This document shows, one piece after another, positions 107 through 30,021 of a stretch of DNA of 52,707 nucleotides. The DNA lies in the NCBI GenBank assembly GCA_016839785.1, contig JAEOTQ010000088.1:1-52707 (forward strand). Reading direction: 5' to 3'. The notes under the pieces are model-generated. The model did no database searches. It saw nothing but the letters and a program-made list of their open reading frames with translations, and was not told the origin of the DNA. Source of the DNA: Candidatus Hodarchaeota archaeon (GTDB lineage Archaea > Asgardarchaeota > Heimdallarchaeia > Hodarchaeales > Hodarchaeaceae). The number at the start of each line of letters is the position of its first letter. The first letter of the stretch is position 1. Made by a program: the position numbers and the translations under genes.

Positions 107-982
107 TTATTTTCTAGCTTCAATGTAAAACGAGATTTTTGGTTGGGTACAGTCAAAGATATTGGTATTTCTTAAAACTGGTGAGACGCTCTGGCCAAAT
201 CTTGAAGAATAAATATCTTCGAATCCAGTCTTTTTTAACATCTGGGTTGTTTTTTTCTCATTCCACCAATTGATATGATTCCCGGGATTTTTATTCTGGA
301 TATCCAAAGAGCATCGTGAGGTACAATGGGTTAAAGCTTCCTCATATTCAAGCGTAGCAAATAAACCTTCTAGTTCTTTATCACTAATTTTGGGGATAGT
401 TTCGTCCATATGAAGTTCAGATACTTGGGCAGCAAAATGATAAAGAAAAATTTGGTGTAGGGAAGCTTGATTCATTGGTTTTCTTATCTTAATCCTGTTA
501 TAATTTCTAGGTGAGCTATAGGTATCAATCCAATAATAATAGCTAGTATCTCTGTTAATGAAAGCTCTGTAATCTAAATCAATATTCGGTGCAGTAATTC
601 TAAGAATTCCTTCCTTTTTTAAAATCCTGTATACTTCATTAAAGAGATTCTGAGCAGCTTTATCGGTTATATGTTCAATTGTATGACTAGAATACACTAT
701 TTCAGCAGTGTTATCATCTATTGGTAGCTTTTCTAAAGATTGAAGGTCAAAATTTATGAAAATACTTCTTTCCTGCGATTTTGAGTACCAATCTGTTGAG
801 TAATCAACGTTTGTCCAATTGGGATGCCTAAAAGTCCCTGCACCAATATTGTAGAATTTCTTATTTCGAATACTGTCAGCTGAAAATAATTCATTATAGA
901 CCTCCAAATAGGGAAATTTGTTTTCTTGATTTTTTTTCATCCCAAGCTGCTTAAGAATTTTAACCCCGATTTTTTTATACAT
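107..982 (-). CDS. Class I SAM-dependent methyltransferase (Methyltransf_11-like), probably glycan-modifying
   Basis: Motif I YNIGAG, YSSHTIEH, LKKEGILRITAPN. Start placed at the internal ATG (MYKKIG); the ORF track extends to 1027. Lies next to flippase and GT genes. Confidence 0.8.
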   Translation of the reverse strand: MYKKIGVKILKQLGMKKNQENKFPYLEVYNELFSADSIRNKKFYNIGAGTFRHPNWTNVDYSTDWYSKSQERSIFINFDLQSLEKLPIDDNTAEIVYSSHTIEHITDKAAQNLFNEVYRILKKEGILRITAPNIDLDYRAFINRDTSYYYWIDTYSSPRNYNRIKIRKPMNQASLHQIFLYHFAAQVSELHMDETIPKISDKELEGLFATLEYEEALTHCTSRCSLDIQNKNPGNHINWWNEKKTTQMLKKTGFEDIYSSRFGQSVSPVLRNTNIFDCTQPKISFYIEARK

Positions 983-1250
983 GATACGCCGCCTATTAAT
1001 AGATAAATAATTATTTCTTAATATCAATTTATTAAAAATTAATTAGATTCATTCAAAAGAAGAACCAACACCCGGACTCTCTCTCGAGAATAATCTATTT
1101 ATTAAACTCCACTTTTCGGAGCAACTTTTAAATTTTAAAGGAGCTAAATATTGTAAATCACTGATCATAATATTGGATTTCCAGTCTACATACCCAGAAA
1201 TCGTGTTTTATAGCCCTAAAGAGAATAAAAATTTGACTCTCCCTATTGAA

Positions 1251-5931: not shown

Positions 5932-6834
5932 TTACTTAATCCTTAGTATAGGAAATATTGAAACTACTTTCCTAATCAAATCTCCTAATTGATAGTGAAA
6001 TACAAAATTCCTTGTTGTTTGTTGACGAGTAGAGAGATTATCAAGAGAGCCACTTGTCAGATATCCTGCTATAAATCGTATTCCAGCCCTTACTCCATAG
6101 TTCTGTAAAATAGAAAAACGAACTGCTCTCATTACAACAATAACTGGATTGTAGCCCAATGCTCTCATCATTTTCCCCCAGTGGAAAAAATCAACGGTTC
6201 CTTCAGGTACTCTTGAAAAATCAAAATGAACATCAGGGAAGCTTTTTACGACTAAACCCAATCTTCGACATTCCATGAGACATTGTGATTCAAATCCATA
6301 AGATATTGGAAACTGTTCACCGTACCATTTCCAAAATCTGTAGGGATAGTACCTCCCAGACCCCTGTGCATGGTCTGGATTTATTGGATATTTTGGATTC
6401 ATTCCCGAAGCAACTGCGAGTCGTGGATTTTCTTCAAATTTCTTATTCATCTTTTCAATATATTCGGACTCAAATTGCGTATCCGCTCCAACAGCAAGGA
6501 TAAAATCATATTTATACTTACATGCCTCACGAAATGCCATATTAATCGTAACAGCAAGTAACGGACTGTCAATGAGGCTTTTTCCCCCAATTCGATCCTT
6601 TCTTTCTATCAAGGAAATTGTGAAAGTTTTGGGTTTAAAATTCTTAATGAGTTGGACTGTATTATCTGAAGATCCATCATCAACTATAGCCACAAATTTA
6701 GGAGGACATGTTTGATAATCTAAAGATTCTAACGTCTTTATTATATGGTTTTCTTCATTTCTAGCTGGGATAATAACATTAATGATTTTTCTGCACCTAT
6801 CTTTCGAAGGAGTATCTTCAGATTTGGTATTCAT
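5932..6834 (-). CDS. GT2 family glycosyltransferase
   Basis: VIIPARNEE, VDDGSSDNT, GAD (DxD variant). Confidence 0.85.
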   Translation of the reverse strand: MNTKSEDTPSKDRCRKIINVIIPARNEENHIIKTLESLDYQTCPPKFVAIVDDGSSDNTVQLIKNFKPKTFTISLIERKDRIGGKSLIDSPLLAVTINMAFREACKYKYDFILAVGADTQFESEYIEKMNKKFEENPRLAVASGMNPKYPINPDHAQGSGRYYPYRFWKWYGEQFPISYGFESQCLMECRRLGLVVKSFPDVHFDFSRVPEGTVDFFHWGKMMRALGYNPVIVVMRAVRFSILQNYGVRAGIRFIAGYLTSGSLDNLSTRQQTTRNFVFHYQLGDLIRKVVSIFPILRIK

Positions 6835-7093
6835 GGAATTCTTTCTCCTTTCACTTCAATTCTCCTTAATAATAAGAAATTTAATCAGTAATAAATCCAG
6901 TTGCTCTTGCACACGATGGTGCCTTATTTACTCTTATGATTTAGCGGTTTTATAGGTGAACGCGAAATTTATAAGACTTTATCGCATAGACTATTGATAA
7001 ATACGAATTATTCTGTACACCCTTATTAAAATGCTTGAAACGCTCAACTCTCATTGTTAAGCTATTAAAACTACGTAGGAACGGAAGAAATAA

Positions 7094-7792
7094 ATGGAGA
7101 ATTGTTATAATTTATCTGGAGATGCTTTAACGGTCGGTGAGAACACACAGTTATTTCATGGAACGTATTTAAACGGTAAAATTGTCATTGGATCCAATTC
7201 CCTGATTGGGCCCCTTGTTGTGATTGGATCGCCTCCTCAACATAGAAAATATTATGCAAATGAACTTGAAGACCTTTCTTTATTTATTGAAATTGGGAGT
7301 AATACGGTAATTAGAGAATTTTCTACAGTTCACCAACCAACCGATAATAGAAATACGATTATAGGGGACAACTGCTTTCTGATGGCATACTCTCACATCA
7401 GTCATGATACTCAACTAGGGGATAATATTGTTTTGGCCAACAATGTACAGATTGGGGGACACACTACCATTATGAGTAATGCAAATATCGGGTTGAACGT
7501 ATGTATTCACCAATTTTCGACAATTGGTTCTTTCTCAATGATAGGTATGGGCTCTATAATTTCTAAGGATGTCCCACCTTTTGTCATTTTCTACAACCGA
7601 AAATGCAGAAAAATCAATAAAATAGGATTAGAGAGAACAGGATTTACAGAAGAAGATATTAGTCTGATAGCTGATTACTATTCAAATAATCAAACAATTG
7701 ATTCGTTACCAGCTCATATTAGTAAGATTATAAATGATTTTCATGCCTTTAGAAATCCCCAAAGATCTATTGCAAATATTGAACTTAAATAA
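7094..7792 (+). CDS. lpxA: LpxA-like acyl-ACP:UDP-GlcNAc O-acyltransferase homologue (left-handed beta-helix)
   Basis: Hexapeptide repeats plus LpxA-specific motifs GSPPQHRKY, IREFSTVH, MAYSHISHD, GGH, IHQF, SKDVPPF, INKIGLERTGF. Confidence 0.8.
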   Translation: MENCYNLSGDALTVGENTQLFHGTYLNGKIVIGSNSLIGPLVVIGSPPQHRKYYANELEDLSLFIEIGSNTVIREFSTVHQPTDNRNTIIGDNCFLMAYSHISHDTQLGDNIVLANNVQIGGHTTIMSNANIGLNVCIHQFSTIGSFSMIGMGSIISKDVPPFVIFYNRKCRKINKIGLERTGFTEEDISLIADYYSNNQTIDSLPAHISKIINDFHAFRNPQRSIANIELK

Positions 7793-7859
7793 ATTATTGT
7801 TAAGCAAGAAAATCTCATAGAATGTGTGTTTTTTCACCTATTAAATAATTAAAAGTAAA

Positions 7860-8708
7860 TTGATTACAATGTCCAAGCTTTGTGTGGTTATAAAAGTATA
7901 TAATGAGTTTGAAATGCTTGAAGAATGTATAAAATCCTTAGAAAATCAAACTACACCTCCAGATCAGGTTATTGTCTCTGATGATGGATCACCGAATCCG
8001 AAAGTTAGTGAGGAGATACTTCGCTTATCCAAAGTAAATCCTAATCTTAAAATAAAATTGATACGCCTACCATTAAAGGATAAACCAGATTTAGATACAG
8101 TCGGTAGAACATTTAATGAAGCGTGGTTCTCGGTTAAAGAACAAGATTTTGACTATTTTGCAACTCTTGACGCTGATACAGTCCTTCCTCGAGATTATTA
8201 TAAGAGTTTAGTAGAGGAAATGGAGAAAAATCCAAATTTTGGATGTACATCTGGAGTAATACGAGTTAAAACAGATTCAAGTGATTATATAGAAGATATT
8301 AATATTGGATCCAAAATTGGACGAAAAGATGCACGTGGATCTGGAAAGATTATACGGGTAAGTCTGCTTCAGCAAATTCAAAAAGAAGTTTTCCCTAAAA
8401 TTGATTGGGATACTTGGATAAATACAAAAGCCAAAGTTTTGGGTATGAAATGTCCTCAAATCGATAGTATTCATATGTTTCAAGGCAGACCTACAACAAG
8501 AGTTGCAGGAAAAGATAATTTCAGGAGTGGAAGATTAACATACCACTTTGGGTATAATCCTATTCTCTTATTTCTTAAAATCATATTAGCGAAAAGAAAA
8601 GGTTTAGTGCTTCTTCGAGGGTATCTGAATGCGAGAAAGGCGGATTGGAGATTAGAAGATGCAGAGGTAAGAAAATATTTTGGATGGAAATTCTTTCTTC
8701 ATCTATAA
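7860..8708 (+). CDS. GT2 family glycosyltransferase
   Basis: VVIKVYNE, SDDGS, LDAD; shares GSG and GYNP motifs with 5932..6834. Likely start is ATG 7869. Confidence 0.85.
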   Translation: MITMSKLCVVIKVYNEFEMLEECIKSLENQTTPPDQVIVSDDGSPNPKVSEEILRLSKVNPNLKIKLIRLPLKDKPDLDTVGRTFNEAWFSVKEQDFDYFATLDADTVLPRDYYKSLVEEMEKNPNFGCTSGVIRVKTDSSDYIEDINIGSKIGRKDARGSGKIIRVSLLQQIQKEVFPKIDWDTWINTKAKVLGMKCPQIDSIHMFQGRPTTRVAGKDNFRSGRLTYHFGYNPILLFLKIILAKRKGLVLLRGYLNARKADWRLEDAEVRKYFGWKFFLHL

Positions 8709-9721
8709 GCTTCTTGGAGGGTAAAAGTAACACTTTCTCCTGTAGTAACACTCAATCTTGCAGCTTCAACAATTTTCATTGCATTTATAGCATCATCTAA
8801 TGATACAAGTGGTTTCCCTTCCCCTTTGATACAATCAATAAAGTTCCATACCTCTTGAAGAAGAGGTTCCCCATATACTTTAATTTGTTCTCCACTAGAG
8901 AAGGGAACGCGTATTGCGGAGGATGTGGTTTCTCCTCGTGCGACTTCTAGACTTCGGAGCTCCAGCATCTGAGTGATTAAATCTGCATGCAGGGTTGCTT
9001 TCGAACCTTCTATATCGATTGTTCTGACTTTTCCAGCATATTCTCGACTCATTAAAAATGTGCAATAAAATTCGTTCCTTGTTGAGGCAATAATTGTGGA
9101 ACTTGAATTACTTATGCCATTCACACTAACTGCCGAGGTAAATAGCTTTACTTTAGATTTAGGTAGTAATCGAGAAACAACATCGAAATCATGGACTCCG
9201 TTGTCTTGATAATCATCTCCAAGAATTTTTATACGGTTTTCACCGACAGCGCCCCGACGTTGAAATAATAATGAGCGGATCTCCCCAAGCATCCCTTCAT
9301 TTATTGTTCGGATAATTCTGGAAACTACTGGATTATACACTTCTATATGTCCAACTAGTATTGCAATTTTTCGTAATGAAAGGTGTGATTTTAGAATCTC
9401 CGCCTCTTTACTTGAAGGTGTGACTGGTTTTTCAATCAATAATGCTTTTAGATGAGGAATGGAGTCTATTACGGATTTAGACATATCAAAATGATGTTCT
9501 GTAGGAACTGCAATAACTACTCCATTGGGAGAGCTATTTTCTAACATTGAATCGAGATTAGAGTAATAAGGAACATGAAGATGATCACTTACCCTTTTAG
9601 CAACAATAATATTGGATTCGATTATAGAATCCAGAATACCTAATCTATTTAATAATCGAGCATGTAGAAAGCCGATTCTTCCTACCCCAATAACACATAT
9701 TTTCACTTTAGAGCTGGGCAA
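8699..9721 (-). CDS. Gfo/Idh/MocA NAD-dependent oxidoreductase (nucleotide-sugar dehydrogenase-like)
   Basis: IGVGRIG Rossmann motif, LIEKP, VGHIEVYNP, DNGVHDFD. Confidence 0.85.
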   Translation of the reverse strand: MPSSKVKICVIGVGRIGFLHARLLNRLGILDSIIESNIIVAKRVSDHLHVPYYSNLDSMLENSSPNGVVIAVPTEHHFDMSKSVIDSIPHLKALLIEKPVTPSSKEAEILKSHLSLRKIAILVGHIEVYNPVVSRIIRTINEGMLGEIRSLLFQRRGAVGENRIKILGDDYQDNGVHDFDVVSRLLPKSKVKLFTSAVSVNGISNSSSTIIASTRNEFYCTFLMSREYAGKVRTIDIEGSKATLHADLITQMLELRSLEVARGETTSSAIRVPFSSGEQIKVYGEPLLQEVWNFIDCIKGEGKPLVSLDDAINAMKIVEAARLSVTTGESVTFTLQEAYR

Positions 9722-9799: not shown

Positions 9800-10807
9800 T
9801 TATGATTTAGAAATAACCTCAGTTTTCAGATTCTTTGTTACAATCAATAAAAATATTAAACCTATTGCAATCCCAAACCATAATGTAGAGACTCTGATTA
9901 TAATTATAAGCGCAGTGGCCAAAGCAGCACTAATTGCTAGAAAATCTCTCAAGAATACCTCCATGCTTCCTTCCATTATTCCTAATCCACCAGGTAAGAA
10001 AGATACTGCACCAAGTAAAGAAGATGTCGCATAGATAAATATCGCTAAATCCATGGATATATCTATCCCTAGATTAAGGGCTATCAAAAGAAATCCAAGG
10101 CCCTCACAAGCCCAACCAATTAAACCAAGAACCAATGCAATGAAAAAGACTTTATACTGCAAGGTCACAAGCACATCTTCTCGAAATTTATCTATCTTTG
10201 GGCTGAATTTAGCTAAAGGTTTTAGTTTAAACAACAAACTAAATAAATTGTAGAGTGGATCAAATAAAAATATAAAAATACCAGAAATAATTAGGAGTAA
10301 GATTAAAGCGAGTATAGGAAGATATATGACGGGATGGTGAGAACTTAGCGTAAAAATACCGAAAAGTGCAAGGAGTGTAACCGCTAACAGGTCAACTAAT
10401 CTCTCAGAAAAAGTTGAAGCTAAACCTTCAGATAATCCAGAAGAGCTTACATTTCTTAATAGAAAAGCTCTTATTGCCTCTCCAGCCTTTGCTGGTGTAA
10501 TCGATAGACTTAATCCCGCAAAAAAGATCATAAAATTGCTTAATATCGGCACTTCTAGCTTTAAACTACGAGTAAATAGATGCCACTTCATAAAACGAAA
10601 TAAATAATTCAAAAAACTCAATATCATCGCTATTATGACGACCATGATATCTACACGGAATAAAATTTGAATTAGATCATTCCACCCACTGTATACCATT
10701 AATACAAAATACACCAAGACTGCTAAGAAGATTCCAAATATAAAAGTCTTGAAACTCAAAAACTGATTTAACGTATCATTCTTCTGTTTTTCCATGAATA
10801 GATCCAT
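9800..10807 (-). CDS. UPF0104/LPG-synthase TM-domain membrane protein (putative flippase)
   Basis: RFMKW, TPAKAGEAIRA, ERLVD, LPGGLGIMEG and IIRVSTLW family motifs; about 8 TM segments. Confidence 0.85.
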   Translation of the reverse strand: MDLFMEKQKNDTLNQFLSFKTFIFGIFLAVLVYFVLMVYSGWNDLIQILFRVDIMVVIIAMILSFLNYLFRFMKWHLFTRSLKLEVPILSNFMIFFAGLSLSITPAKAGEAIRAFLLRNVSSSGLSEGLASTFSERLVDLLAVTLLALFGIFTLSSHHPVIYLPILALILLLIISGIFIFLFDPLYNLFSLLFKLKPLAKFSPKIDKFREDVLVTLQYKVFFIALVLGLIGWACEGLGFLLIALNLGIDISMDLAIFIYATSSLLGAVSFLPGGLGIMEGSMEVFLRDFLAISAALATALIIIIRVSTLWFGIAIGLIFLLIVTKNLKTEVISKS

Positions 10808-13495: not shown

Positions 13496-14551
13496 CTAAG
13501 TAAAATTGAGTAGTTTGCTATATGTTGGATGATACTCTAGCTTAGAAGTGATATTTTTTATTTCTGATGCTTTTTCTTTCGTACAAATAAAAATGCAATC
13601 TTCTGTGTCTATTATTACCAAATCTTCTATACCAAATCCAATTACTGGTTTCTCCCCGAAAATAATACAATTCTTTACATCTAGACCCAAATATTCCGTC
13701 TGGACTATATTTCCATTTGTGTCTCTTTGCATTATTCTGTCCAGGGAATCCCAAGTTCCAATATCGTCCCATTCAAAGTCCCCTTCGATAACTAGTAGAT
13801 CGTTTGACTTTTCCATTATCCCATAATCTATAGATATTTTTGGTAATAGTTCAAATACTTCCTTTGCTACCTGTGGATCAAAATTTGCTCTACGAATCTT
13901 TTCTAATCCCTTATAAAGTGTAGGCATAAACATTTTAAAGCTCAAATACAGAAAAGAAGGCTTAACAACGAACATTCCTGAGTTCCATAAATATCCTTTT
14001 CGTATATATTCTTTTGCTTTTGATAAACTGGGTTTTTCCTTGAAAGAATTCACTATAAACGCATTTGCTTCTGTTGATGGTATTTTCACACCTGGTTCAA
14101 TATATCCAAATCCAATTTCAGGCCTTCGTGGTTTAATTCCTATTGTAACAATCTTATTCTTTTCAGCTAACTTGACTGCGTCTTGAATTGTCTTTTTAAA
14201 TTCCGTTAAATCTGGTATAAAATAATCTGCTCCCATAAAAATTGTTACTTCATCTTGATCATCATTCAGTAGATGTGAACAAGCGTATCCGATTCCCGCT
14301 GCAGAATCACGGCCTAAAGGTTCAACGAAGAGATTTACATCAGGCAATTGTTCTTGAATTAGTCCTTTAAGACTACCCCGTGTCGATATATGGATATTAT
14401 TTGAATCAACTATTTGACTAGCGTTATGATAAGTTTGTTGGATTAATGAAGACCCTTTATCAAGAGAAATACATTGTTTGGGTTTATTTTTTCGAGATTT
14501 TGGCCATAAGCGTTCCCCACCGCCCCCTGCTAATATCACAAGATTAACCAT
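13496..14551 (-). CDS. manC: Mannose-1-phosphate guanylyltransferase
   Basis: VILAGGGGERLWPKSRKNKPKQ, EPLGRDSA, FKEKP, WNSGMF, SIDYGIME, WDDIGTW. Start at MVNLV with GAGG upstream; no PMI domain. Confidence 0.92.
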   Translation of the reverse strand: MVNLVILAGGGGERLWPKSRKNKPKQCISLDKGSSLIQQTYHNASQIVDSNNIHISTRGSLKGLIQEQLPDVNLFVEPLGRDSAAGIGYACSHLLNDDQDEVTIFMGADYFIPDLTEFKKTIQDAVKLAEKNKIVTIGIKPRRPEIGFGYIEPGVKIPSTEANAFIVNSFKEKPSLSKAKEYIRKGYLWNSGMFVVKPSFLYLSFKMFMPTLYKGLEKIRRANFDPQVAKEVFELLPKISIDYGIMEKSNDLLVIEGDFEWDDIGTWDSLDRIMQRDTNGNIVQTEYLGLDVKNCIIFGEKPVIGFGIEDLVIIDTEDCIFICTKEKASEIKNITSKLEYHPTYSKLLNFT

Positions 14552-14638
14552 CCTAGTTACCTCTAAAAATATCACGGGTGTTAAATCGAGAAAAGATTTC
14601 TCAAGGGGATGAATAAAAAGCTTACTTGAAAAAATGAA

Positions 14639-15019
14639 TTAATTCTGATGTAGATATTTTCCAATAATACGAAGTAATTCTGCAGAACTGAACGGTTTAG
14701 TCACATACTCTTCTGCCCCTGCTTGAAACCCCTCTTCGATATGATGGTCAAGGACCTTGGCAGAAAATATGATAATAGGAATAGATTTATGTACTGGATC
14801 TGTCTTCAATCGTCTACAAACCTCTATACCATTTAATTCTCCAGGCATTCTAATATCAAGGAGAATTAAATCGGGATTTTGCTTTACTTCCTCTAATGCC
14901 TCCGAACCATTTAGTGCTTTTAGTACGTCGTAACCTTCGTGTTTTAAGATCGTCTGCATTAATTCAAGGGTGTCAGGTTCGTCATCAACTACCAAAATAC
15001 TTTTCTTATCGGATATCAT
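14639..15019 (-). CDS. Stand-alone CheY-like response regulator receiver
   Basis: VVDDEP, phospho-acceptor LLDIRMP, SA, KPF. Start at MISDKK. No kinase in the window. Confidence 0.9.
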   Translation of the reverse strand: MISDKKSILVVDDEPDTLELMQTILKHEGYDVLKALNGSEALEEVKQNPDLILLDIRMPGELNGIEVCRRLKTDPVHKSIPIIIFSAKVLDHHIEEGFQAGAEEYVTKPFSSAELLRIIGKYLHQN

Positions 15020-15173
15020 AGGAAAAACCAGTGGAAAATGCAATAATAGCAAAATTTGTGACTTTTTACAGGCTAACTTGGTTAGTTTAATAATATTTTT
15101 TTAGCGACGTTAGGCTTGGAAACGGTTCTTATTCACCATAAAATTTAGATAATCTCAATATCTCATTTCAAAC

Positions 15174-15836
15174 TTATTTAAAGAGCCGGTCAAGAATTTT
15201 ACTGTAAATATCAGGTTTATTCACATTTGAAAGATGAGTCTGGAGATATTTAATGTCAGTAAATGTGTCTAAATCCCTTGTACAGGGATCTAAATCTAGT
15301 AACTCATATTCTAAAGCTAACTTTTTTGCAGATTGGATGTAGTTATCTTTACTTTTCAAGCCAAAACAAAATGGAAGCAGATCAGGACGGCTCATGTAGA
15401 GCATAGCTGTACCCTTTTTTTCTCCTTCACCCGAAATTGAAGGAACTATCAGTATATCTACATTCTGGATATGTGTCAATACTGCTTGAAGACATTCATT
15501 TGAAAAAAAAGGGAGATCTGGCATTATTATGAGTATTGATTGGTTCTGGGGTAATTGCTTCATTGCCTTCGATAGAGCAGTGTTTAAATCTGTACCTTCA
15601 TCGATAAAAGTGAATTTTGCTCCTAATTCTAAGCTAGATTCAACAATTTCACGTGAAGGAGTAATCACGCCAAAAGATAAGCCCCTTGTCTGAATTACTT
15701 TTATGGTCTGATAAAAAGAAGCTTTTACTAAGCTTTCAATTTCGTAAATTTCCGTAGAGGTCAGAGCGGCTTTAATACGCATTTTTGTTTTTGATATTTC
15801 TTTGATAGGAATTATTACTAATACATCTGAAGCCGT
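15174..15836 (-). CDS. cofC: 2-phospho-L-lactate/PEP guanylyltransferase (F420 biosynthesis), probable ACG start
   Basis: The conserved N-terminal VIIPIK....KxRI motif lies upstream of the track ATG (15782). Also DLNTAL, MPDLP, GT, FG, DLDTFTD. Operonic with cofD. Confidence 0.8.
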   Translation of the reverse strand, partial: TASDVLVIIPIKEISKTKMRIKAALTSTEIYEIESLVKASFYQTIKVIQTRGLSFGVITPSREIVESSLELGAKFTFIDEGTDLNTALSKAMKQLPQNQSILIIMPDLPFFSNECLQAVLTHIQNVDILIVPSISGEGEKKGTAMLYMSRPDLLPFCFGLKSKDNYIQSAKKLALEYELLDLDPCTRDLDTFTDIKYLQTHLSNVNKPDIYSKILDRLFK

Positions 15837-15886
15837 TTGCTACTCAACACCTAGAATACGTTGAATTGATCTTATCCGTATAATTC

Positions 15887-16642
15887 CTAAAAGTCTTTTA
15901 CTAGGGAGCAAAAAAAATCGTGATTCTTCCTAGCAGCTCTAGCTACTGAAAAATAACTTGCTCCTGTGTCTAGAATTGCCTTAGCACTTCTTTGATCAAC
16001 TACTGAATTATTACCGATCACTTCAGACTGGTTAAAATTTGTAAAACTGGTTAGAAGTGTTAAATCCGTACCTTCTATTCCATTTCGGTAAGAATCAATG
16101 TGCAAGTAGTCTATTCCCCAATCATTTACTAATTTTGAAAATGATCGGGGATCTACAGTATTTCCTCGAATTTTTAAAGAGGTGGGAAAGTCTTTTGATT
16201 TAAAAATTGATAAAATGCGTGAAAGTGTTTCAGGGCGTTGAGTAAGATTCTGTCCTCCTCCTTTTTCTAAAATTTCTTGTTGTCTGCAATGTGCATTCAC
16301 TTCAATAATGGGAATAACGGAAATTCTCTCTGAAAACTCTCTAGCAAATGATAGTGTTTCTTCGGGATTATTTAACCTTACATTTACGATTGTATTCGAT
16401 TTTGAAGGGAGTTTATCTAATTCCTGAGCGATAAAATTTGCTTCCTCTCCCAGTTGTATCGGAAATTCATTACGTCCCCGTAAGGTTAATTCTACTGCTG
16501 CATTAATCATTTCTTTACCTATCGAATACCCTCCAATTGTCACCTTTCCCACACAACCACTCTCAAAAATCTGAGCTGCAAAATTTCCGTTAGTAATCCC
16601 CGCCATTGCAGCTAATACCGCATGTGAAGAGGAGAGATTCAT
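15887..16642 (-). CDS. Archaeal dihydrouridine-synthase-like FMN TIM-barrel protein (MJ0144/NifR3-related)
   Basis: LAAMAGITNG, IEVNAHCRQQE, SLKIR, LHIDS, IGNNSV, SVARA. Confidence 0.8.
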   Translation of the reverse strand: MNLSSSHAVLAAMAGITNGNFAAQIFESGCVGKVTIGGYSIGKEMINAAVELTLRGRNEFPIQLGEEANFIAQELDKLPSKSNTIVNVRLNNPEETLSFAREFSERISVIPIIEVNAHCRQQEILEKGGGQNLTQRPETLSRILSIFKSKDFPTSLKIRGNTVDPRSFSKLVNDWGIDYLHIDSYRNGIEGTDLTLLTSFTNFNQSEVIGNNSVVDQRSAKAILDTGASYFSVARAARKNHDFFCSLVKDF

Positions 16643-16643
16643 A

Positions 16644-17576
16644 CTAATTCTCTTCCAATATGAGGTTTATGAGGCGTCGAGCATCATTATGGTTTTTAAT
16701 GACAATATTGCCAAATAACGCTTTTATTCCCAACTTTTGGGTAGCTTTTTCAAGATTCTTATCAGATTCATGGAGAATTATCCCATCTAAAAAGTCACGG
16801 AAAAGTTTGCCTACCGCAATCGGTGAAGTTTCATAATTCCATGCATGAAGAAATTTTCCAGTAGGCCCAGAAAGGGCAGCGTTTCCAATAATTGGACTTA
16901 TCGCATATTTTTTGGCATTTGAGGTACGAAGCGCATTACGAATAGGAGAAATTGCCACAATTGGTCCCAAAGAAGAAACTGGATTACTAGGACCAATTAT
17001 TATGTAAACAGCAGATTCTATCTCTTTAATAATCTCGGGGGTTGTTATACTCAGATCACCCTCAAAGAACACATTTAAAACCTCTAACTCCCCCTTGTAT
17101 CGCACCCAATATTCTTGCAGATGTAGAAGTTCATTTTCAGTACGAATCATGGTTCTGATTGGCTGGTCAGCCATTGGTAATACTTTAGACTTGATATTCA
17201 AACGTTTGGTAAGTTTTTTTGTTGCCTCAGTTAATGACATTCCTTGTTCTAATAACCACGTTCGATAAAGACAGAGACCTGCATCTTGATCCCCAAGGTT
17301 GAACCATATATCCTCTTCTAAGAAATCTCGTAACATTCTTACCATATTAAAGGTATCATTATTAATTCCCCACCATTTTGTTACATCTATCAGGTTTGTT
17401 AAGGTAAAGATTATACTATCAATATCTGGAGAGACATAAAGTCCATAATATCGCCAATCATCCCCTGTATTACCAATAATTGTTATATCTTGTGGATCAA
17501 TTAAAGAATTAATACCTTGTAGCAATTTTGGGGTGCCAGTTCCTCCTGATAAGAATACAATCTTTTTTGAGCCCAT
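16644..17576 (-). CDS. cofD: 2-phospho-L-lactate transferase (F420 biosynthesis)
   Basis: FLSGGTGTPKL, GNTGDD, VSPDID, WWGI..DTF, LGDQD, HLQEYWV, IGPSNPVSS, SPIIG...SGP. Confidence 0.95.
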   Translation of the reverse strand: MGSKKIVFLSGGTGTPKLLQGINSLIDPQDITIIGNTGDDWRYYGLYVSPDIDSIIFTLTNLIDVTKWWGINNDTFNMVRMLRDFLEEDIWFNLGDQDAGLCLYRTWLLEQGMSLTEATKKLTKRLNIKSKVLPMADQPIRTMIRTENELLHLQEYWVRYKGELEVLNVFFEGDLSITTPEIIKEIESAVYIIIGPSNPVSSLGPIVAISPIRNALRTSNAKKYAISPIIGNAALSGPTGKFLHAWNYETSPIAVGKLFRDFLDGIILHESDKNLEKATQKLGIKALFGNIVIKNHNDARRLINLILEEN

Positions 17577-17664
17577 ATTACCCCACTTATTTCACAAGAT
17601 CCCTACTACATAAATTACTAATCGTATTTAACTAAATTTTCTGAAGTATATTATCCGACCAGTA

Positions 17665-18780
17665 ATGACTAAGTCTAAGCATGAATGGGATTTAATAATT
17701 CTTAAAGAAAATGATAGTCTAAACACACAATTAGTTTGGCATGCTGCTGCTCTAGCTCGTAGTCGTGGGATACAACCTCGTGATCTTATTATTATTGATT
17801 GGCCCACTGATCCTATCGTAGTGTGTGGGTTTCATCAAGTTATTGAGAGAGTGGTTGATATTGATTATTGTAGAAAAAATAATATTCCAATTAGTCGCCG
17901 AGCTTGCGGAGGAGGAGCTGTGCTTTTAGATTCAAATCAACTTTTTTACAATATCATTGCCCATATTGATTCCACATTACTTCCCAGAAATATAAATAAG
18001 TTCTTTGAAAAAACCCTTCACCCCGTGGCTCAAACTTATCGTCATTTCGGAATAAATGCTGAGTACAAACCTGTTAATGACATTCTTGTCAATAATCGTA
18101 AAATTTCGGGAAATGGTGCTGGACTCCTTGAAGATGCTCAAGTGTTAGTTGGAAATTTCATCTTAGACTTTCCTCGTAAAGAGATGGCTCAAATCTTGAA
18201 GGTTCCAAGTGAAAAATTTCGGGATAAGGTAATTAAATCCCTTGAAGCAGGAATAAGCTCATTTAAAGACGAATTAGGTTTTATTCCCCAACGAGATTCA
18301 ATCATTGCAGAATATATCAAGCAGATTGAAACAGCATTTGATATCAGTCTAATAGAAACTCAATTAGAACCAGGGACACTTGAACTAATGGAGGAACTAA
18401 GAGAGACATATCTGACCGATGAATGGCTCTTTCAGGTAAAAGCTCGAGGAGACCAACTTACGAGTAAAGTAAAAATTCATGGATCCTCTCACGTGGTCGA
18501 AGGGATGTACAAATCTAAGGGGGGCTTAATAACCGTCATCTGCGAATTTAATGGTTCTGTTCTTTCAGATATTCTCATCAGTGGTGATTTTTGGATTCTC
18601 CCGGACACAATTCTACCTAAGTTTGAGAGATTTCTTGTAAATTATAATCTAGCCGAAGGAGATCTTTCTGGACGAATAAGTACCTTTTTAGAAGAAAACG
18701 AATGCGAAACACCTGGAACTTCATCCTCTGATCTAGCTCAGGCTATTCAGAACGCATATAGTAAAATATCTAATACATAA
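17665..18780 (+). CDS. lplA: Lipoate-protein ligase (catalytic domain plus C-terminal accessory domain)
   Basis: RRACGGGAV, NDILVNNRKISGNG, C-terminal KSKGGLI...ISGDF. Confidence 0.88.
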   Translation: MTKSKHEWDLIILKENDSLNTQLVWHAAALARSRGIQPRDLIIIDWPTDPIVVCGFHQVIERVVDIDYCRKNNIPISRRACGGGAVLLDSNQLFYNIIAHIDSTLLPRNINKFFEKTLHPVAQTYRHFGINAEYKPVNDILVNNRKISGNGAGLLEDAQVLVGNFILDFPRKEMAQILKVPSEKFRDKVIKSLEAGISSFKDELGFIPQRDSIIAEYIKQIETAFDISLIETQLEPGTLELMEELRETYLTDEWLFQVKARGDQLTSKVKIHGSSHVVEGMYKSKGGLITVICEFNGSVLSDILISGDFWILPDTILPKFERFLVNYNLAEGDLSGRISTFLEENECETPGTSSSDLAQAIQNAYSKISNT

Positions 18781-18892
18781 CACTCAGTTCCTCCAATCCT
18801 GAATTTCATCCGTTTCTTTAAATAACTAAGCTCCATTTCCAGCAATCATCTATTCTACCCAATTTCTACTTATGATTGAGAGTTAAAATACC

Positions 18893-21772
18893 ATGAAAAT
18901 TTCGAAGGTAAATCCTAATCGCATTGGACATTATTCAGGAAGTGAAAGATTAGAAGATCCGACATTAGAGGAGCCTGATGAGGATACAGAAGAAGTTGCT
19001 TATTACTGGCATAATAATCCTGAATCTAAAGCTATTTTAAGAGAGGAAATGGGTAATAAACTTGAATCTTGGAACAAAGGTATAATAGATAAGTATCCTA
19101 ATTCTGAAATGTCCTTTCATCTAGTAGGACAATCCCATATTGATATCGCATGGTTATGGAGAATAGAACAAACCCGAAAAAAATCTGTTGTCACATTCAA
19201 AAAAGCTGTATACCATTCTAAACAATTTCCTAAAACGTACTGCTTTGCTCTAAGTGAGCCAATTTTACTTGAGTGGATATTAGAAGATGATCCTGAACTA
19301 TTCAAGGATATACAAAAAACTGTTGAGGATGGAGGTATAGAATTAGTGGGAGGATCATATGTTGAGCCTGATTGTATGATGCCCTGTGGTGAAGCGATTA
19401 CTAGAAGTCGGTTATACGGTCAAAGATTCTTTTTCAAGCATTTCAACCGTCTTCCAAAGGTTGAGTGGTTTTTAGACTCATTTGGATATTCAGCGGGCCT
19501 ACCTCAAATTTTAAAGAAAAGCGGAGCGGAATATATTTGGACAACAAAATTATCTTGGAATTTAGAAACTGTTTTTCCATTTTCCAACTTTTTTTGGGAA
19601 GGTGTTGATCAGACTCGGATTCAAACTGGAATCTTTCCTATGAGCTATGACCCTCTGAAAAATTGGGAAAAATTTGAGATCGGTCATCATCCACTTAAAT
19701 CTAATATCTCCTACTTGGGAAACTATGAAAGAGATTATTACGATCTTGCCCAATGGGTGGAAAAGGATGAGATTATTCCCCCCGTTGGATTATTTTTTGG
19801 TATGAGTGATGGAGGCCACGGGCCTACGTCTGAAGAAGTTGCTCGTGCAAATATGTTAATTGAATTAAGTGATAAATTTCATTGGAGTCGAGTAGAATCA
19901 TTCTTCCAGAAAATAAAGCAATGGGAACAACAATTTCCTATTTGGGCGGATGAATTGTATTTAGAAAATCATAGAGGATGTTTTTCTGTTCATGCGGAGG
20001 TTAAAAAGAAGAATCGGGTGTTTGAAAATCAACTTCTCTCTTCAGAAGCCTTGAGTTCGACGATGTCATTGCTACGGAATGAAAAAAATCAAAAAATCAC
20101 AGAAATTCTCGAAAAGACCTGGAAAACTGTTCTAAAAAATCAATTTCATGATATTCTTCCTGGAACCTCGATACCTGAAGTCTACGATGATATTTATGAG
20201 GATTGGGAAGAATGTTGCCAGAATATTAAGCTCATCAAGGATGAGATTAGCACGAAGATAAATGGCCCTTCAGAAAAATGCCAGTTTGTCATGTGGAATC
20301 CTCTGTCCTGGGAGAGAACGGCAAAAGTATTTATTCCTGTGAATGCAGTAAACAATAATATCAAGTTAGATGATGAAGGACGTCCTCCATTTGCAGAACT
20401 GACATATTTTAATCCATCCGAAAATACTATTTTAGCACAACCTGTCTCAGCAGAACCAAAAGAATGGCTTGACGCACGTCCCGCGGGTTGGTGGACAATT
20501 ATCCAACTTTCAGCCACAAGCCTTACTCCTGCATATATTTCTTTGAATGTAAAGATGAGCTCTAATAAAGAAATACACTCCGAACCATTAGTACTGGATA
20601 ATGACATAGTTAGTATTAAACTTGATTCCAAAACGGGAGGCCTCCTTTCTCTAACAAATTCCTCCATTCTAGAGAGAAAAAATTTGCTGAAGGGATCGAA
20701 TAATAACTTAACACAGGCTTATAAAGATATATCCGAGGATTGGCCTGCTTGGAATCTCACCCCTGAATATTGGAACCATTCACTTGAATTATCAAATTCG
20801 CAAGATGTACAAATTACACTTCGTGATAAGGGGCCAGTTTTTGCATCAATTGAGGTACAGAGAACTTTAGGAAAGCTAAAAAACCCAGTATTGCAACGAT
20901 ACACTCTTTTTAAGGGTCGTTCTGAAATTTATCTTGACTATATTGCTAATTGGAAACAACCTTTAGTCATGCTAAAAGTGGGGATACATACTGCTACTAA
21001 TGCAACACATTGTACGACCGATGTGATGTTCGGGGCCATTGAACAAAGTACAGATCCAAAAACCCCTGCGGATAAAGCACGGTTTGAAAAAATTTGTCAC
21101 AAATTTTATGATCTGAGTACACCCACAAATGAATGGGGAATTGCTACACTAAGTCAAGATAAGTATGCATTTAGTGTCAACAAGGGGTCCAGCTCCCTTA
21201 CAATGTTACGTACCCCACCGTACTTCCCCGCTTCACCAGAAGCATGGGTTCATGAGGAAAGAGCCATACGAAAAGAGAAATACGGAACAGAAGTACCAGA
21301 ATATTCAGGCCTTGGCCCACTTCGAAGTACATACGCTTATCTTCCACACAAGGGAGGTTCACTGCGATTACATAATGAAAAACCGAATCCTCTTGTTCGA
21401 CGAGCTGCAGAAGAGTTTAATCAACCTGTGCAAATATTGACACTGACAACTGTCCAAAACGTAAATAAAATTAAGGTTGATGGACAGCCACTAATTAAAA
21501 TTGAATCGGATTTTGCAATGCTCTCTGCTCTGAAGATGAATGAATGGAAAACAAATGATAATATAATAATCAGAGTAATAGAAATGCTAGGAGTCGGAGG
21601 AAAAGTTGAAATAGAATTAAATCCACTTATTCAAAGTAATATTATCTCTATTCAAGAAGTAGACTTACTTGAAAGACCTATGTCAGAAACACCAATAGAG
21701 AATAAACAAACAGGCTTTGCAATTACCTTAATCCCATTTGAAGCAAAAACTATTGAGTTAGTTATAGATTAA
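18893..21772 (+). CDS. GH38 alpha-mannosidase (cytosolic)
   Basis: GQSHIDIAWLW (Zn ligands), YVEPD, WFLDSFG (nucleophile), DGGHGP, ELYLENHRG, NQFHDILPG; no signal peptide. Confidence 0.93.
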   Translation: MKISKVNPNRIGHYSGSERLEDPTLEEPDEDTEEVAYYWHNNPESKAILREEMGNKLESWNKGIIDKYPNSEMSFHLVGQSHIDIAWLWRIEQTRKKSVVTFKKAVYHSKQFPKTYCFALSEPILLEWILEDDPELFKDIQKTVEDGGIELVGGSYVEPDCMMPCGEAITRSRLYGQRFFFKHFNRLPKVEWFLDSFGYSAGLPQILKKSGAEYIWTTKLSWNLETVFPFSNFFWEGVDQTRIQTGIFPMSYDPLKNWEKFEIGHHPLKSNISYLGNYERDYYDLAQWVEKDEIIPPVGLFFGMSDGGHGPTSEEVARANMLIELSDKFHWSRVESFFQKIKQWEQQFPIWADELYLENHRGCFSVHAEVKKKNRVFENQLLSSEALSSTMSLLRNEKNQKITEILEKTWKTVLKNQFHDILPGTSIPEVYDDIYEDWEECCQNIKLIKDEISTKINGPSEKCQFVMWNPLSWERTAKVFIPVNAVNNNIKLDDEGRPPFAELTYFNPSENTILAQPVSAEPKEWLDARPAGWWTIIQLSATSLTPAYISLNVKMSSNKEIHSEPLVLDNDIVSIKLDSKTGGLLSLTNSSILERKNLLKGSNNNLTQAYKDISEDWPAWNLTPEYWNHSLELSNSQDVQITLRDKGPVFASIEVQRTLGKLKNPVLQRYTLFKGRSEIYLDYIANWKQPLVMLKVGIHTATNATHCTTDVMFGAIEQSTDPKTPADKARFEKICHKFYDLSTPTNEWGIATLSQDKYAFSVNKGSSSLTMLRTPPYFPASPEAWVHEERAIRKEKYGTEVPEYSGLGPLRSTYAYLPHKGGSLRLHNEKPNPLVRRAAEEFNQPVQILTLTTVQNVNKIKVDGQPLIKIESDFAMLSALKMNEWKTNDNIIIRVIEMLGVGGKVEIELNPLIQSNIISIQEVDLLERPMSETPIENKQTGFAITLIPFEAKTIELVID

Positions 21773-21835
21773 GGATTATGATAAACAATGCTCCTTCAAT
21801 TTTTCGAGGGAGTAAGTATCGCGATTGGATTCCTT

Positions 21836-22045
21836 TCATTCTTTAAGGGATATTATGGTTGTTTTTGCTCTTTTATCCTCAGTGACCATCATTTTTTCCT
21901 TTAAAACGTTCAAAGCTTGAAAAAAATATAGATTTGCTAATCTAGACTCTTTCTTGAGGGCCAATAATGTCATAGAATCGTTATTTTTTCTCAAAACATT
22001 GATAATAATGTCTTGATTTTCAGAAAGCGTTTGACCTGTTGCCAT
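21836..22045 (-). CDS. Small winged helix-turn-helix protein
   Basis: LSENQDIIINVL...MTLLAL...ALNVLKEKMMV pattern followed by a beta-wing; GGTGA RBS upstream. Confidence 0.6.
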   Translation of the reverse strand: MATGQTLSENQDIIINVLRKNNDSMTLLALKKESRLANLYFFQALNVLKEKMMVTEDKRAKTTIISLKE

Positions 22046-22078
22046 AACACATTCACCAATTATAAGGTTGATGAAGTC

Positions 22079-22975
22079 CTAGAGTGCTTGCATTAACTTC
22101 GACTTGTCAATAGTGGCAACGCCAATTACTTTATCTGCACCACCATAATATACAAAATACTTGTTTTCCTTTTCTACTACACCGCAGGTGAAACAAACGT
22201 TTGGAACATCTCCATGAATCTCATAATCTTCTTCTGGAATCATAATTGGGTCTTCAATTCTCGAAATTATTTTACTAGGCTCATCTAAATCTAATAACAT
22301 CGCTCCTAGACTATAATGGAGATTCTTATCTACCCCATGATAAAATTCTAACCAACCTTCGTCAGTCTTGATCGGTGGAGCCCCAGCTCCAACTTTGAAA
22401 TCTTGCCAGCTATTCTCAATAGGTGCAAAGAATTTGGTGTGATCAGTCCAATTTTTTAAATCTTTGGAATAAGCTATCCACATGTCAGGTTCAGGAGCAC
22501 GATGCATCAAGACATATCTTCCATTAATTTTTTCAGGAAAGAGGACTCCATCCTTGTCTCTATATTCGTTAATTATAGTTCCATGCCTTTCAAACTTCTT
22601 AAAATCCAGAGTAGATGCGACTCCGATATGAAATTCAACATCCCCTGCAGGAATGAGTGTTTTGACTGCAGTATAGGTAATATAGTATTTATCATCTAAA
22701 AATGTTATGCGTGGATCTTCAATCCCAAATTTCTCATACTCAGCCTCAGGAACCATAATTGGATCTGCAAATTGCTCAAAATTATACCCATCTTTACTCA
22801 GAGCCAGTCCGAATGTTGAGATATATGTGTCATAATTCCCAATGGCACGATAAAGTAAAAGTACTTGTTCATTATATATAGTTGCAGCACAATTGAATAC
22901 TCCTCCTTTTTCCCAATCGTGATTATCATTCGGTACAATAATAGGATTTTTAGAATATCTTGTTAGAGAAACCAT
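22079..22975 (-). CDS. GH130 beta-mannoside phosphorylase
   Basis: FNCAA, EDPRIT, KDGVLFPEKINGRY..MHR, KVGAG, YHGV, GDVPNVCF; the basic phosphate-binding residues (R, K, H) are present. Confidence 0.9.
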   Translation of the reverse strand: MVSLTRYSKNPIIVPNDNHDWEKGGVFNCAATIYNEQVLLLYRAIGNYDTYISTFGLALSKDGYNFEQFADPIMVPEAEYEKFGIEDPRITFLDDKYYITYTAVKTLIPAGDVEFHIGVASTLDFKKFERHGTIINEYRDKDGVLFPEKINGRYVLMHRAPEPDMWIAYSKDLKNWTDHTKFFAPIENSWQDFKVGAGAPPIKTDEGWLEFYHGVDKNLHYSLGAMLLDLDEPSKIISRIEDPIMIPEEDYEIHGDVPNVCFTCGVVEKENKYFVYYGGADKVIGVATIDKSKLMQAL

Positions 22976-23103
22976 AATTTTCTACCTTTTATTTATGAAT
23001 TTGTGATCAAAAAATCAACCAAAGCCAGGATGATATGAAGAGATTAAGTCTTGACCTAAATTAGATAAAAATCTTCATTTTTTTGAGGTATTTCTTGTTA
23101 TTA

Positions 23104-28302: not shown

Positions 28303-28680
28303 ATGTCTGAAAACACCATTCAATGTCCCTGTGGCCAACCTATTCATGATTACACGGATTACTTACTCTTGTATTTGAAAAAAGACTCAGATGAAGGAGG
28401 CGAGATTGATATTCTTTGTAGAAACGATTATTGTTACTTAAGAGAGTTAGGCTACTTGAAATTTACCATTGATAAAGCTAGGAAGGTTACATTAGAAAAA
28501 GGTAAATTCTATGCGCCATATGTAACATGGAATGCAACAAGGATGTCAGAAGCTCGTACAGTAGAAATCCTTAAAATACATCTAGTAGACATTACAGAGA
28601 AGCTCGTGCAATGGGAGAAGGTCATAAGGGGAATTGATAAAGAAAAGAAAGCATTAAGTTCTGAGGAGGCAACTGCGTGA
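28303..28680 (+). CDS. Small Cys-rich (CPCG...CxxxxC) putative Zn-binding protein
   Basis: Four cysteines; its stop overlaps the next start (GTGA, 28677-28680). Confidence 0.65.
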   Translation: MSENTIQCPCGQPIHDYTDYLLLYLKKDSDEGGEIDILCRNDYCYLRELGYLKFTIDKARKVTLEKGKFYAPYVTWNATRMSEARTVEILKIHLVDITEKLVQWEKVIRGIDKEKKALSSEEATA

Positions 28681-29279
28681 GCTTAGATTTACCAGAACCT
28701 GATTTTTCACTCTCAGAGGTATTTTATTTATCTTATTCAAATATCAAAAGGAGATTTTTCCGTTCTATTATAACAGCGTTGGGAATTATTTTAGGAATCG
28801 CATTTATGGCTGCCTTATTGACAAATTCACTTATTTTAGATTGGCTACAGACAGAATCAGGTGTTGAAGCATATCAATACTGGTTAGTAGGGATTTCATT
28901 GATAGTTGCCTTCGGGGGAATTACCAACTCCATGTTGATGGCTGTTAACGAAAGAGTGAAGGAAATCGGGGTTTATAAGTGCATTGGAGGATTAGATTCC
29001 CACATTGTTCGTCTATTCATAGTAGAAGCCCTACTCTTAGGAATATTGGGTGGTTTCTTTGGAGCAATAATTGGTATCGGGATGGGAATTGGAATAAATT
29101 TAAACCGTGCTTCTTTAGACGAATTAACAGTCATTCTTGAAGCAAATTTCTCAACGCTACTCATACTTTTTTCAGCTTGCATTCTGATTGCAATAATACT
29201 AACATCACTCGCGACCTATATCCCAGCTCGAAGAGCTTCTAAACTTTCACCAGCTGAAGCTTTAAGATACGAAAATTAA
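28677..29279 (+). CDS. Minimal FtsX/MacB-type ABC permease lacking an extracytoplasmic domain
   Basis: NIKRRFFRSIITALGIILG, NSMLMAVNERVKEIGVYKCIG, LFIVEA, PARRASKLSPAEALRYE; 4 TM segments. Confidence 0.9.
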   Translation: MSLDLPEPDFSLSEVFYLSYSNIKRRFFRSIITALGIILGIAFMAALLTNSLILDWLQTESGVEAYQYWLVGISLIVAFGGITNSMLMAVNERVKEIGVYKCIGGLDSHIVRLFIVEALLLGILGGFFGAIIGIGMGIGINLNRASLDELTVILEANFSTLLILFSACILIAIILTSLATYIPARRASKLSPAEALRYEN

Positions 29280-29294
29280 TATGGTGGTTTTAAT

Positions 29295-30017: not shown

Positions 30018-30021
30018 TGGA

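Follow-up and report, generated by a model that had tools for sequence, protein, structure and literature searches.

What is a gene that resembles lpxA, whose product takes the first step of lipid A synthesis, doing in the surface-glycan locus of an archaeon? The question is raised by a 52,707-nucleotide contig of a Candidatus Hodarchaeota archaeon (JAEOTQ010000088.1 of assembly GCA_016839785.1), referred to here as the window, in which the open reading frame (ORF) at 7094–7792 on the forward strand encodes an LpxA-like left-handed beta-helix acyltransferase of 232 aa. A first-pass annotation had taken this protein for an LpxA homologue repurposed to O-acylate a UDP-HexNAc for a surface glycan, possibly from acyl-CoA. 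The sequence comparisons reported here place it instead in an already existing sister clade of LpxA with mostly bacterial members, of the type of the Psychrobacter enzyme Pcryo_0615, and outside LpxA proper. The gene is a recent horizontal single-gene insertion between two conserved GT2 glycosyltransferase genes. Its product probably N-acylates a nucleotide-linked 3-amino sugar from a coenzyme A (CoA) thioester.

Sequence family and predicted fold

The reading frame begins at the first possible start codon past the upstream stop. Pfam finds hexapeptide repeats in the product (7.9e-24). The model of the LpxA C-terminal domain, Acetyltransf_11, is matched only over positions 1–41 of 82 (1.4e-7); nonetheless, the AF2 model (pLDDT 91.4, pTM 0.89) has a beta-helix and three C-terminal helices (residues 176–181, 186–198, and 207–219). 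In NCBIfam, two LpxA equivalog models are the best families by a wide margin (E values of 1.1e-54 and 7.9e-53), the next being TIGR03570 (NeuD/PglB/VioB) with 76.8 bits against a cut-off of 160.8. The comparison of LpxA-specific with generic models suggested by the first-pass annotation thus goes to the LpxA models, yet both remain below their own cut-offs, NF003657 with 185.3 bits (cut-off 226) and TIGR01852 with 179.3 bits (cut-off 231.05). The sub-cut-off scores were repeated in a profile search of the whole genome. Eighteen LpxA-type sequences in the PDB match the protein with E values of 1e-20 to 1e-32, the top match being Arabidopsis LpxA (116.6 bits); 8e62, the structure of Pcryo_0615, reaches 99.6 bits. 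Judged by sequence, the likeness to LpxA is far beyond chance. A Foldseek search with the AF2 model ranks LpxA structures first (TMq 0.83–0.84), with 8e62 after them.

A match to a family of the NeuD/PglD/WbpD type is absent; 3mqg and 7txp match only the generic hexapeptide core. A grouping with these sugar N-acetyltransferases, which the first-pass annotation had allowed for, therefore fails by sequence, but it survives by function, where the protein goes with an LpxA-shaped analogue of WbpD. The closest database proteins (P0002–P0008) are 43–50% identical and behind them lies a continuum of bacterial LpxAs at 33–43%; a scan of GTDB genomes returned canonical bacterial LpxAs only, at identities of ≤43%. 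Annotation pipelines name the relatives UDP-GlcNAc acyltransferase. Literature searches found no description of the sister clade in archaea. Look-alikes in the ESM Atlas, which we treat as leads, fall into clusters of 230–254 aa in Bacteroidota and Actinomycetota and one cluster of 198 aa that is 67% viral.

Phylogenetic placement

Sequences were gathered from 19 GTDB loci, the best 80 of 472 metagenome relatives, and the Asgard copies, and ORFs were assigned to the sister or the canonical class by their best BLAST match. In a tree of 109 rows, 67 canonical rows are separated, at an SH-aLRT of 99, from a group of 42 rows to which the window protein belongs, and this group holds no member from a lipid A (Raetz) context. 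With four LpxD sequences as the root, an LG+C20 tree likewise unites the sister rows in a single clade (support 98/89). This second tree has 74 rows, namely 33 of the 42 sister rows (nine near-duplicates were dropped), 37 of the 67 canonical rows (chosen for speed), and the four LpxD sequences. Profiles give the same division. A sister hidden Markov model (HMM) built without the window protein scores that protein at 259.9 bits versus 203.5 for the canonical HMM; the values for Escherichia coli LpxA are 194.8 and 318.6 bits, respectively. The protein is thus a member of an existing clade and not a repurposed LpxA. Within the clade, the 109-row tree joins it with L047 and P0002–P0008 (SH-aLRT 94).

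One metagenome protein, P0007 (274 aa), stands between both clades. The sister profile gives it 225.5 bits and the canonical profile 217.6; in the 109-row tree it branches basally on the canonical side, and in the LG+C20 tree it joins the sister group at 100/99. P0007 and the window protein have in common a 5-residue deletion before the KINKIGLER motif.

Active-site residues

Residues were mapped onto E. coli K-12 LpxA from its annotated record (L035:3561-4346; b0181), to which the window protein is identical at 67 of 217 aligned positions (31%). The mapping with an offset of 21 given in the first-pass annotation is exact against this reference: H101, H104, D105, H123, H139/Q140, and M152 pair with H122, H125, D126, H144, H160/Q161, and G173. 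Further pairs in the alignment are Q49 with Q73, H80 with H99, N175 with N198, and R181 with R204. The motifs PQxxKY and NxxGLxRxGF, also named there, are present as P48-Q49-H50-R51-K52-Y53 (offset 24) and N175–F184 (offset 23), indels having shifted both from 21; in the 109-row alignment, K52 and Y53 align with K76 and Y77. R204, the equivalent of R181, we take to be a substrate-contact residue of LpxA.

In LpxA, H125 is the general base with D126 as its partner, the amide of G143 forms the oxyanion hole, H144 contacts the 6-OH, Q161 contacts the phosphate, and N198 and R205 contact the uracil (PMC6286764). Acyl chain length is controlled by G173 and H191, and the acyl β-hydroxyl is read by H122 and Q73 together with a water that H99 holds in place (PMC6286764). 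The window protein keeps all the catalytic and contact residues (H104, D105, G122, Q140, N175, and R181). The sister clade has them as well, and hence they do not tell it from LpxA proper; the equivalents of H125, D126, G143, and Q161 are invariant in 42 of 42 sister rows and that of N198 is present in 41. The intact active site of the first-pass annotation therefore stands as regards the His/Asp dyad, the oxyanion glycine, the UDP-binding residues, and membership of the superfamily, but by its scores and its clade the protein is not an LpxA orthologue.

The GlcNAc-binding loop is altered: the Asp of position D74, found in 61 of 67 canonical rows, is mostly replaced by His in the sister clade. 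The 'hydrocarbon ruler' position (G173 in E. coli, M152 here) is Gly in 62 of 67 canonical rows and Met in 41 of 42 sister rows, one of the two peptide patterns used to retrieve sister loci having contained Gly-Met; Met is also found in all 13 sister sequences retrieved by other routes (11 P proteins, L036, and L042). M152 is thus a hallmark of the sister clade and not, as first read, a Pseudomonas-like variant of LpxA. The triad that reads the β-hydroxyl in LpxA (Q73/H99/H122; Q49/H80/H101 in the window protein) occurs in 25 of the 42 sister rows, among them the window protein, and in all six sister loci with MaoC, SDR, or thiolase neighbours.

Gene neighbourhoods of the clade

The two classes differ in the genes around them. 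Among 65 ORFs nearer to E. coli LpxA, 61 have fabZ, lpxD, or lpxB within 6 kb. None of the 37 ORFs nearer to the window protein does, and 21 of them have a DegT aminotransferase and/or a GFO oxidoreductase. Neighbours were also counted from Pfam annotation within 3 kb, using distinct sequences only (33 sister, 62 canonical). FabZ, LpxD, and LpxB stand beside 46, 33, and 18 of the 62 canonical genes and beside none of the 33 sister genes. DegT stands beside 13/33 sister and 0/62 canonical genes. Several families likewise seen beside 0/62 canonical genes occur in smaller numbers in the sister set: MaoC hydratase (4/33), FdtA (2/33), SDR (2/33), nucleotide-sugar 6-dehydrogenase (2/33), thiolase (1/33), AMP-dependent ligase (1/33), and UDP-GlcNAc 2-epimerase (1/33). 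GFO neighbours occur in 9/33 sister and 19/62 canonical loci. DegT and FdtA discriminate the clades, and both point to nucleotide-linked 3-amino sugars. Of the Asgard copies, the one in genome G084 (L036) is directly flanked by GFO and DegT, and the one in G034 (L042) has both about 3.6 kb away.

In two metagenome loci (L075 and L103), the LpxA-like gene lies beside FdtA (3,4-ketoisomerase) and DegT; the probable substrates of this subgroup are dTDP-3-amino-3,6-dideoxyhexoses rather than UDP-GlcNAc3N. Four sister-clade genes of about 200 aa (L112, L114, L118, and L123) are without a sugar-pathway neighbour, and their contigs may be phages.

Comparison with characterised enzymes

Pcryo_0615 of Psychrobacter cryohalolentis K5 (PDB 8e62) is labelled 'UDP-N-acetylglucosamine acyltransferase' by its depositors, and the title of the entry describes an N-acetyltransferase required for a 2,3-diacetamido-2,3-dideoxy sugar. 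The enzyme is reportedly the subject of a paper by Hofmeister et al. in Protein Sci in 2023 (doi 10.1002/pro.4502). 8e62 is the only solved structure that favours the sister profile (174.5 versus 117.3 bits with the canonical one), whereas 17 of 17 solved LpxAs score 83–130 bits higher with the canonical profile; the sister member P0010 matches 8e62 with 125 bits and the best LpxA with 98. Like the window protein, 8e62 has the Met of an IGMG motif at the ruler position, the HD dyad, and the HQ motif, and Foldseek superposes the two with a TMt of 0.85 at 31% identity. Neighbours of other clade members (GFO and DegT) encode a sugar pathway of the kind to which Pcryo_0615 belongs. The two enzymes also differ: 8e62 has 189 aa and is without most of the C-terminal helical domain, whereas the window protein keeps three helices, and the host of the one is bacterial and that of the other archaeal. 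Where the window protein has Q49/H80/H101, 8e62 shows E/D/Y in the alignment through P0010. As these are the residues that would read a β-hydroxyl, the acyl donor may differ.

E. coli LpxA (PDB 1lxa, 2jf2, and 2qia) and the window protein have the same fold (TMq 0.84 for the window model against 2jf2), His/Asp dyad, oxyanion glycine, UDP contacts, and β-hydroxyl triad. The window protein is unlike LpxA in the Met at the ruler, the altered GlcNAc loop, an N-terminus about 24 residues shorter, scores below the family cut-offs, a separate clade, the lack of fabZ, lpxD, or lpxB neighbours, and a genome in which no acyl carrier protein (ACP) was found.

The proposed route follows the logic of Leptospira, in which a 3-dehydrogenase and an aminotransferase prepare the substrate of an LpxA-fold N-acyltransferase. 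LpxA of Leptospira interrogans (3hsq) presumably N-acylates UDP-GlcNAc3N made by GnnA and GnnB, a GFO-type dehydrogenase and an aminotransferase. Leptospira LpxA works in lipid A synthesis with acyl-ACP, and 3hsq belongs to the canonical clade (297.4 bits with the canonical profile versus 167 with the sister one). The 3-amino-sugar N-acetyltransferases of O-antigen pathways, WbpD/WlbB (3mqg) and QdtC/FdtC (3fs8), have the same type of reaction as is proposed here and the same pathway partners; they are distantly related beta-helix proteins, 3mqg matching the window protein over about 50 residues with an E value of 1.8e-7 and 3fs8 with 4.5e-6. A five-enzyme Wbp route, with WbpB, WbpE, WbpD, and WbpI among its members, leads to a related diacetamido uronic acid (PMC10622841).

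Insertion into the glycan locus

The gene lies between two GT2 genes. The left one (5932–6834, reverse strand; Pfam Glycos_transf_2, 3.9e-16) has DNA matches in genomes G010, G011, G012, and G018 of the same genus. The right one (7860–8708, forward strand; Pfam 8.2e-19), which is co-directional with the LpxA-like gene, has DNA matches in many same-genus genomes. With the window protein as query, none of the 21 other same-genus genomes gives a match at E ≤ 1e-20; a weak match in G012 (1.2e-13, 31% identity) is a different hexapeptide protein. Three of the 399 other genomes of the phylum carry a matching gene (G034, G084, and G138). No DNA match in the same-genus genomes covers positions 6835–7859. 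The empty site is seen in G011, where about 275 bp separate the flanking GT2 genes (about 1082 bp in the window) and a tblastn search detects no trace of the gene. In G010, G012, and G018, the distance from the left GT2 gene to the flippase-like gene is 1.4–1.55 kb versus 3.15 kb in the window.

The left border of the insertion lies in the intergenic stretch 6835–7093, which is shared with the divergent GT2 gene and is presumed to hold the promoter region; it is marked by the empty site of G011 and by a contig, X2, that matches 6622–7075 with 0 mismatches. The right border lies in the AT-rich spacer of 67 bp (7793–7859; GC 0.21) before the co-directional GT2 gene, and a second contig, X1, bridges the gene and this GT2 gene over 6962–8032, also with 0 mismatches. 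Both contigs were assembled independently from marine-sediment metagenome runs, which may include the source sample of the genome. As they cover the junctions without a mismatch, both junctions are real. An imperfect direct repeat of 20 nt (family D2, 80% identity) brackets the gene, with its left copy at 7053–7072 and its right copy at 7796–7815, both on the forward strand. We regard it as a weak lead. Either a promoter or target segment may have been duplicated, or the repeat may be accidental; in AT-rich DNA, two-copy repeat families often arise by chance. The GC content of the gene (0.343) is close to that of the host (0.356–0.361), and the nearest relatives are also on low-GC contigs; composition therefore cannot date the transfer.

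Host genome

The window is the whole of contig C40 in a metagenome-assembled genome (MAG) of 4.04 Mb and 248 contigs, which is 84.5% complete with 3.4% contamination. The archaeal setting assumed in the first-pass annotation holds up well. The genome encodes Ribosomal_S3Ae, which among the control genomes was matched only in four archaeal ones, a member of the PcrB/GGGP-synthase family above the Pfam cut-off, and a full-length eukaryote-type actin (439.7 bits; bacterial controls also match weakly, so it is the strength that counts). The DNA of the first 20 kb of the window is matched in 20 of the 21 other same-genus genomes, and G002 is 80% identical over 13524–20000. The MAG has no archaeal small-subunit rRNA, and the window has no tRNA and no Rfam family. 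The contig is authentically archaeal; contamination or a chimera is ruled out by the synteny within the genus together with the independent run contigs that bridge both junctions.

A Pfam scan of the 36 ORFs of the window found no fabZ gene and, in agreement with the first-pass annotation, no lpxC, lpxD, lpxB, or ACP gene. In the whole genome, LpxC and LpxB gave 0 matches, no LpxD scored above its cut-off, and no PP-binding (ACP) domain was matched; at this completeness, the absences mean 'not found' and stop short of proof. A lipid A pathway is rejected, as LpxC, LpxB, LpxD, and ACP were not detected in the 84.5%-complete genome, and with it goes the bacterial or chimeric contig with a full Raetz pathway that had been considered at first.

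Proposed function

The enzyme would be a soluble trimer with active sites between the subunits, as in LpxA. Its acceptor would be the 3-amino group of a nucleotide-linked 2-acetamido-3-amino-2,3-dideoxy-hexose or its uronate, a sugar that could be made by the GFO-type 3-dehydrogenase encoded one gene away and the DegT aminotransferase encoded on contig C59. A CoA thioester is the likely acyl donor, since no ACP was found. H104 would act as the general base, with D105 positioning H104 and the backbone amide of G122 stabilising the oxyanion. The acyl group would be acetyl, as in Pcryo_0615, or a short (R)-3-hydroxyacyl such as 3-hydroxybutyryl. It is predicted to be short because the side chain of M152 would fill the chain channel, and the hydroxyacyl group is favoured a little over acetyl because Q49, H80, and H101 are kept. 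The neighbouring GT2 enzymes would build the acylated sugar into a surface glycan. The role in a surface glycan and the acyl-CoA donor put forward in the first-pass annotation are sensible readings given the glycan locus, the missing Raetz pathway, and the missing ACP. A more specific version, in which the 3-amino group of a UDP-amino sugar receives an (R)-3-hydroxyacyl group of short to medium length (C4 to about C10), supplied by a CoA thioester, is offered tentatively, as a possibility and not as the expected outcome.

Several observations weigh against N-acylation of a 3-amino sugar. There is no DegT aminotransferase and no MaoC in the window, and the genome's single strong DegT (C59:8173-9309) lies outside a glycan context; the 3-amino acceptor is therefore derived from the relatives of the protein and not from the locus. 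The best NCBIfam model for the GFO protein is NF040723 (archaeal UDP-GlcNAc 3-dehydrogenase), at 121.4 bits against a cut-off of 450, and GFO alone does not discriminate, because it is also found beside 19 of 62 canonical lpxA genes. No informative neighbour occurs within 6 kb in 16 of the 37 sister loci, many of them on short contigs. The frequency of Met and the context counts are biased by the Gly-Met retrieval pattern and by taking the best 80 of 472 relatives. The tie of 8e62 to the sister clade is by profile scores and not by tree placement. The window protein itself is the least sister-like member, on a long branch, its advantage of 56 bits for the sister profile being the minimum of the clade, and in the LG+C20 tree it diverges basally within the sister clade. 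An AU test (p = 0.28) neither establishes nor rejects its grouping with the MaoC-associated subclade. The association of the triad with MaoC, SDR, or thiolase neighbours represents perhaps two or three independent events, as related rows share labels.

The enzyme might have kept the chemistry of LpxA and O-acylate the 3-hydroxyl of a UDP-HexNAc from acyl-CoA for the glycan. We consider this unlikely, even though it would agree with the retention of the full LpxA catalytic set and the β-hydroxyl triad, with the conservation of H123 (H144, the 6-OH contact) and Q140 (Q161, the phosphate contact), and with a window that has no aminotransferase; a gene that arrived alone would also need a substrate made by its host, and UDP-GlcNAc is the most general. 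The clade, however, is never in a Raetz context and repeatedly lies with DegT or FdtA, its only characterised relative is an N-acetyltransferase, and its GlcNAc loop, with His mostly in place of D74, differs. The DegT neighbours of the clade and the example of Pcryo_0615 make 3-amino N-acylation likelier than the O-acylation of a UDP-HexNAc first proposed. It is about equally improbable that the gene is a stranded recent passenger without a working pathway, neutral or decaying. An intact frame, conserved catalytic and UDP-binding residues, and a confidently predicted fold argue against decay, as does the position of the gene 67 bp upstream of a conserved, co-directional GT2 gene. The gene is present in only 1 of 22 same-genus genomes and is without the DegT or MaoC partners that flank its closest relatives (L047, L048, L050, and L051), but the genome encodes DegT, MaoC proteins (on contigs C73 and C88), and a nucleotide-sugar 6-dehydrogenase (on C115) elsewhere. 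The protein is also the least typical of the clade, about 12 aa below the median of 244 aa.

That the gene encodes a true LpxA of a lipid A pathway, whether through contamination or a chimera or through an archaeal lipid A-like molecule, is effectively refuted. The best family matches are LpxA equivalog models and the relatives carry the annotation UDP-GlcNAc acyltransferase, but the scores are below both cut-offs, the tree places the protein outside canonical LpxA, the partner enzymes LpxC, LpxB, and LpxD were not found in the genome, and the contig is syntenic with those of 20 of 21 same-genus archaeal genomes, with both junctions bridged by run contigs. N-acylation of a 3-amino sugar thus remains the reading that we favour.

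Other features of the window

The GFO/IDH/MocA oxidoreductase (8699–9721, reverse strand; Pfam) is a possible nucleotide-sugar 3-dehydrogenase. After NF040723, its next NCBIfam model is inositol 2-dehydrogenase (98.5 bits), and its PDB matches are 4hkt (4.8e-13) and 7bvj (2e-9). The gene is variable in the genus: it is contiguous with the right GT2 gene in G005, G017, and G020, and no GFO gene lies between the right GT2 gene and the flippase-like gene in G009, G011, and G021. The glycan locus is mosaic within the genus. The flippase-like membrane protein (LPG_synthase_TM/TIGR00374; Pfam and NCBIfam) is encoded at 9800–10807 and a polysaccharide-biosynthesis membrane protein of the Wzx type (Polysacc_synt, 1.9e-7) at 1251–2771, both on the reverse strand. 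A methyltransferase dependent on S-adenosylmethionine (107–1027, reverse strand; Pfam) stands at the edge of the glycan locus. The variable region ends at a sugar-1-phosphate nucleotidyltransferase (13496–14575, reverse strand; Pfam NTP_transferase with a ManC beta-helix), from which the 80% DNA identity to G002 runs onward.

Further downstream, a CofC-like gene (15174–15782) and CofD (16644–17576) of F420 biosynthesis flank an ORF of 251 aa without a Pfam match (15887–16642), and the whole block (15174–17576) is conserved in same-genus genomes. Glycoside hydrolase genes are clustered, with a GH38 α-mannosidase at 18893–21772 (forward strand), a GH130 mannoside phosphorylase at 22079–22975, and a GH2-type enzyme at 23104–25551 (both reverse strand), which suggests a locus for mannan or N-glycan breakdown (18893–25551). 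The stretches 28303–30768 and 36004–40542 are of note for an unusual fusion, a protein of 1512 aa with an M28 peptidase and an FtsX-type permease domain; upstream of it are an FtsX permease gene, two genes for ABC ATPases, and a DUF6785/DUF6784 membrane protein of 728 aa (33796–35982). On contig C59, a protein of 1398 aa with apolipoprotein-like helical repeats (L127, G000:C59:3040-7233; 97 bits against a cut-off of 90) is encoded two genes from the lone DegT, with 7260–7970 between them, and a DDE transposase is found at the end of the contig.

Implications

Annotations of 'LpxA' in archaea, actinobacteria, and viruses are no signal of lipid A; what they denote is a family of its own, made up of amino-sugar acyltransferases and for the most part uncharacterised. 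For the enzymology of this family, the Q73/H99/H122 triad and the Met ruler, together with MaoC, thiolase, or SDR neighbours, may separate members that transfer 3-hydroxyacyl groups from those that transfer acetyl. If the tentative hydroxyacyl version were true, the part of the clade that bears the triad and is associated with MaoC would represent an uncharacterised, CoA-dependent parallel to LpxA in which MaoC takes the place of FabZ as the neighbour, and an Asgard surface glycan would carry a 3-hydroxyacyl-amido sugar, a chemical signature of lipid A. For Asgard biology, the locus provides a recent and cleanly bounded insertion of a bacterial-type gene that diversifies a surface-glycan locus within one genus.

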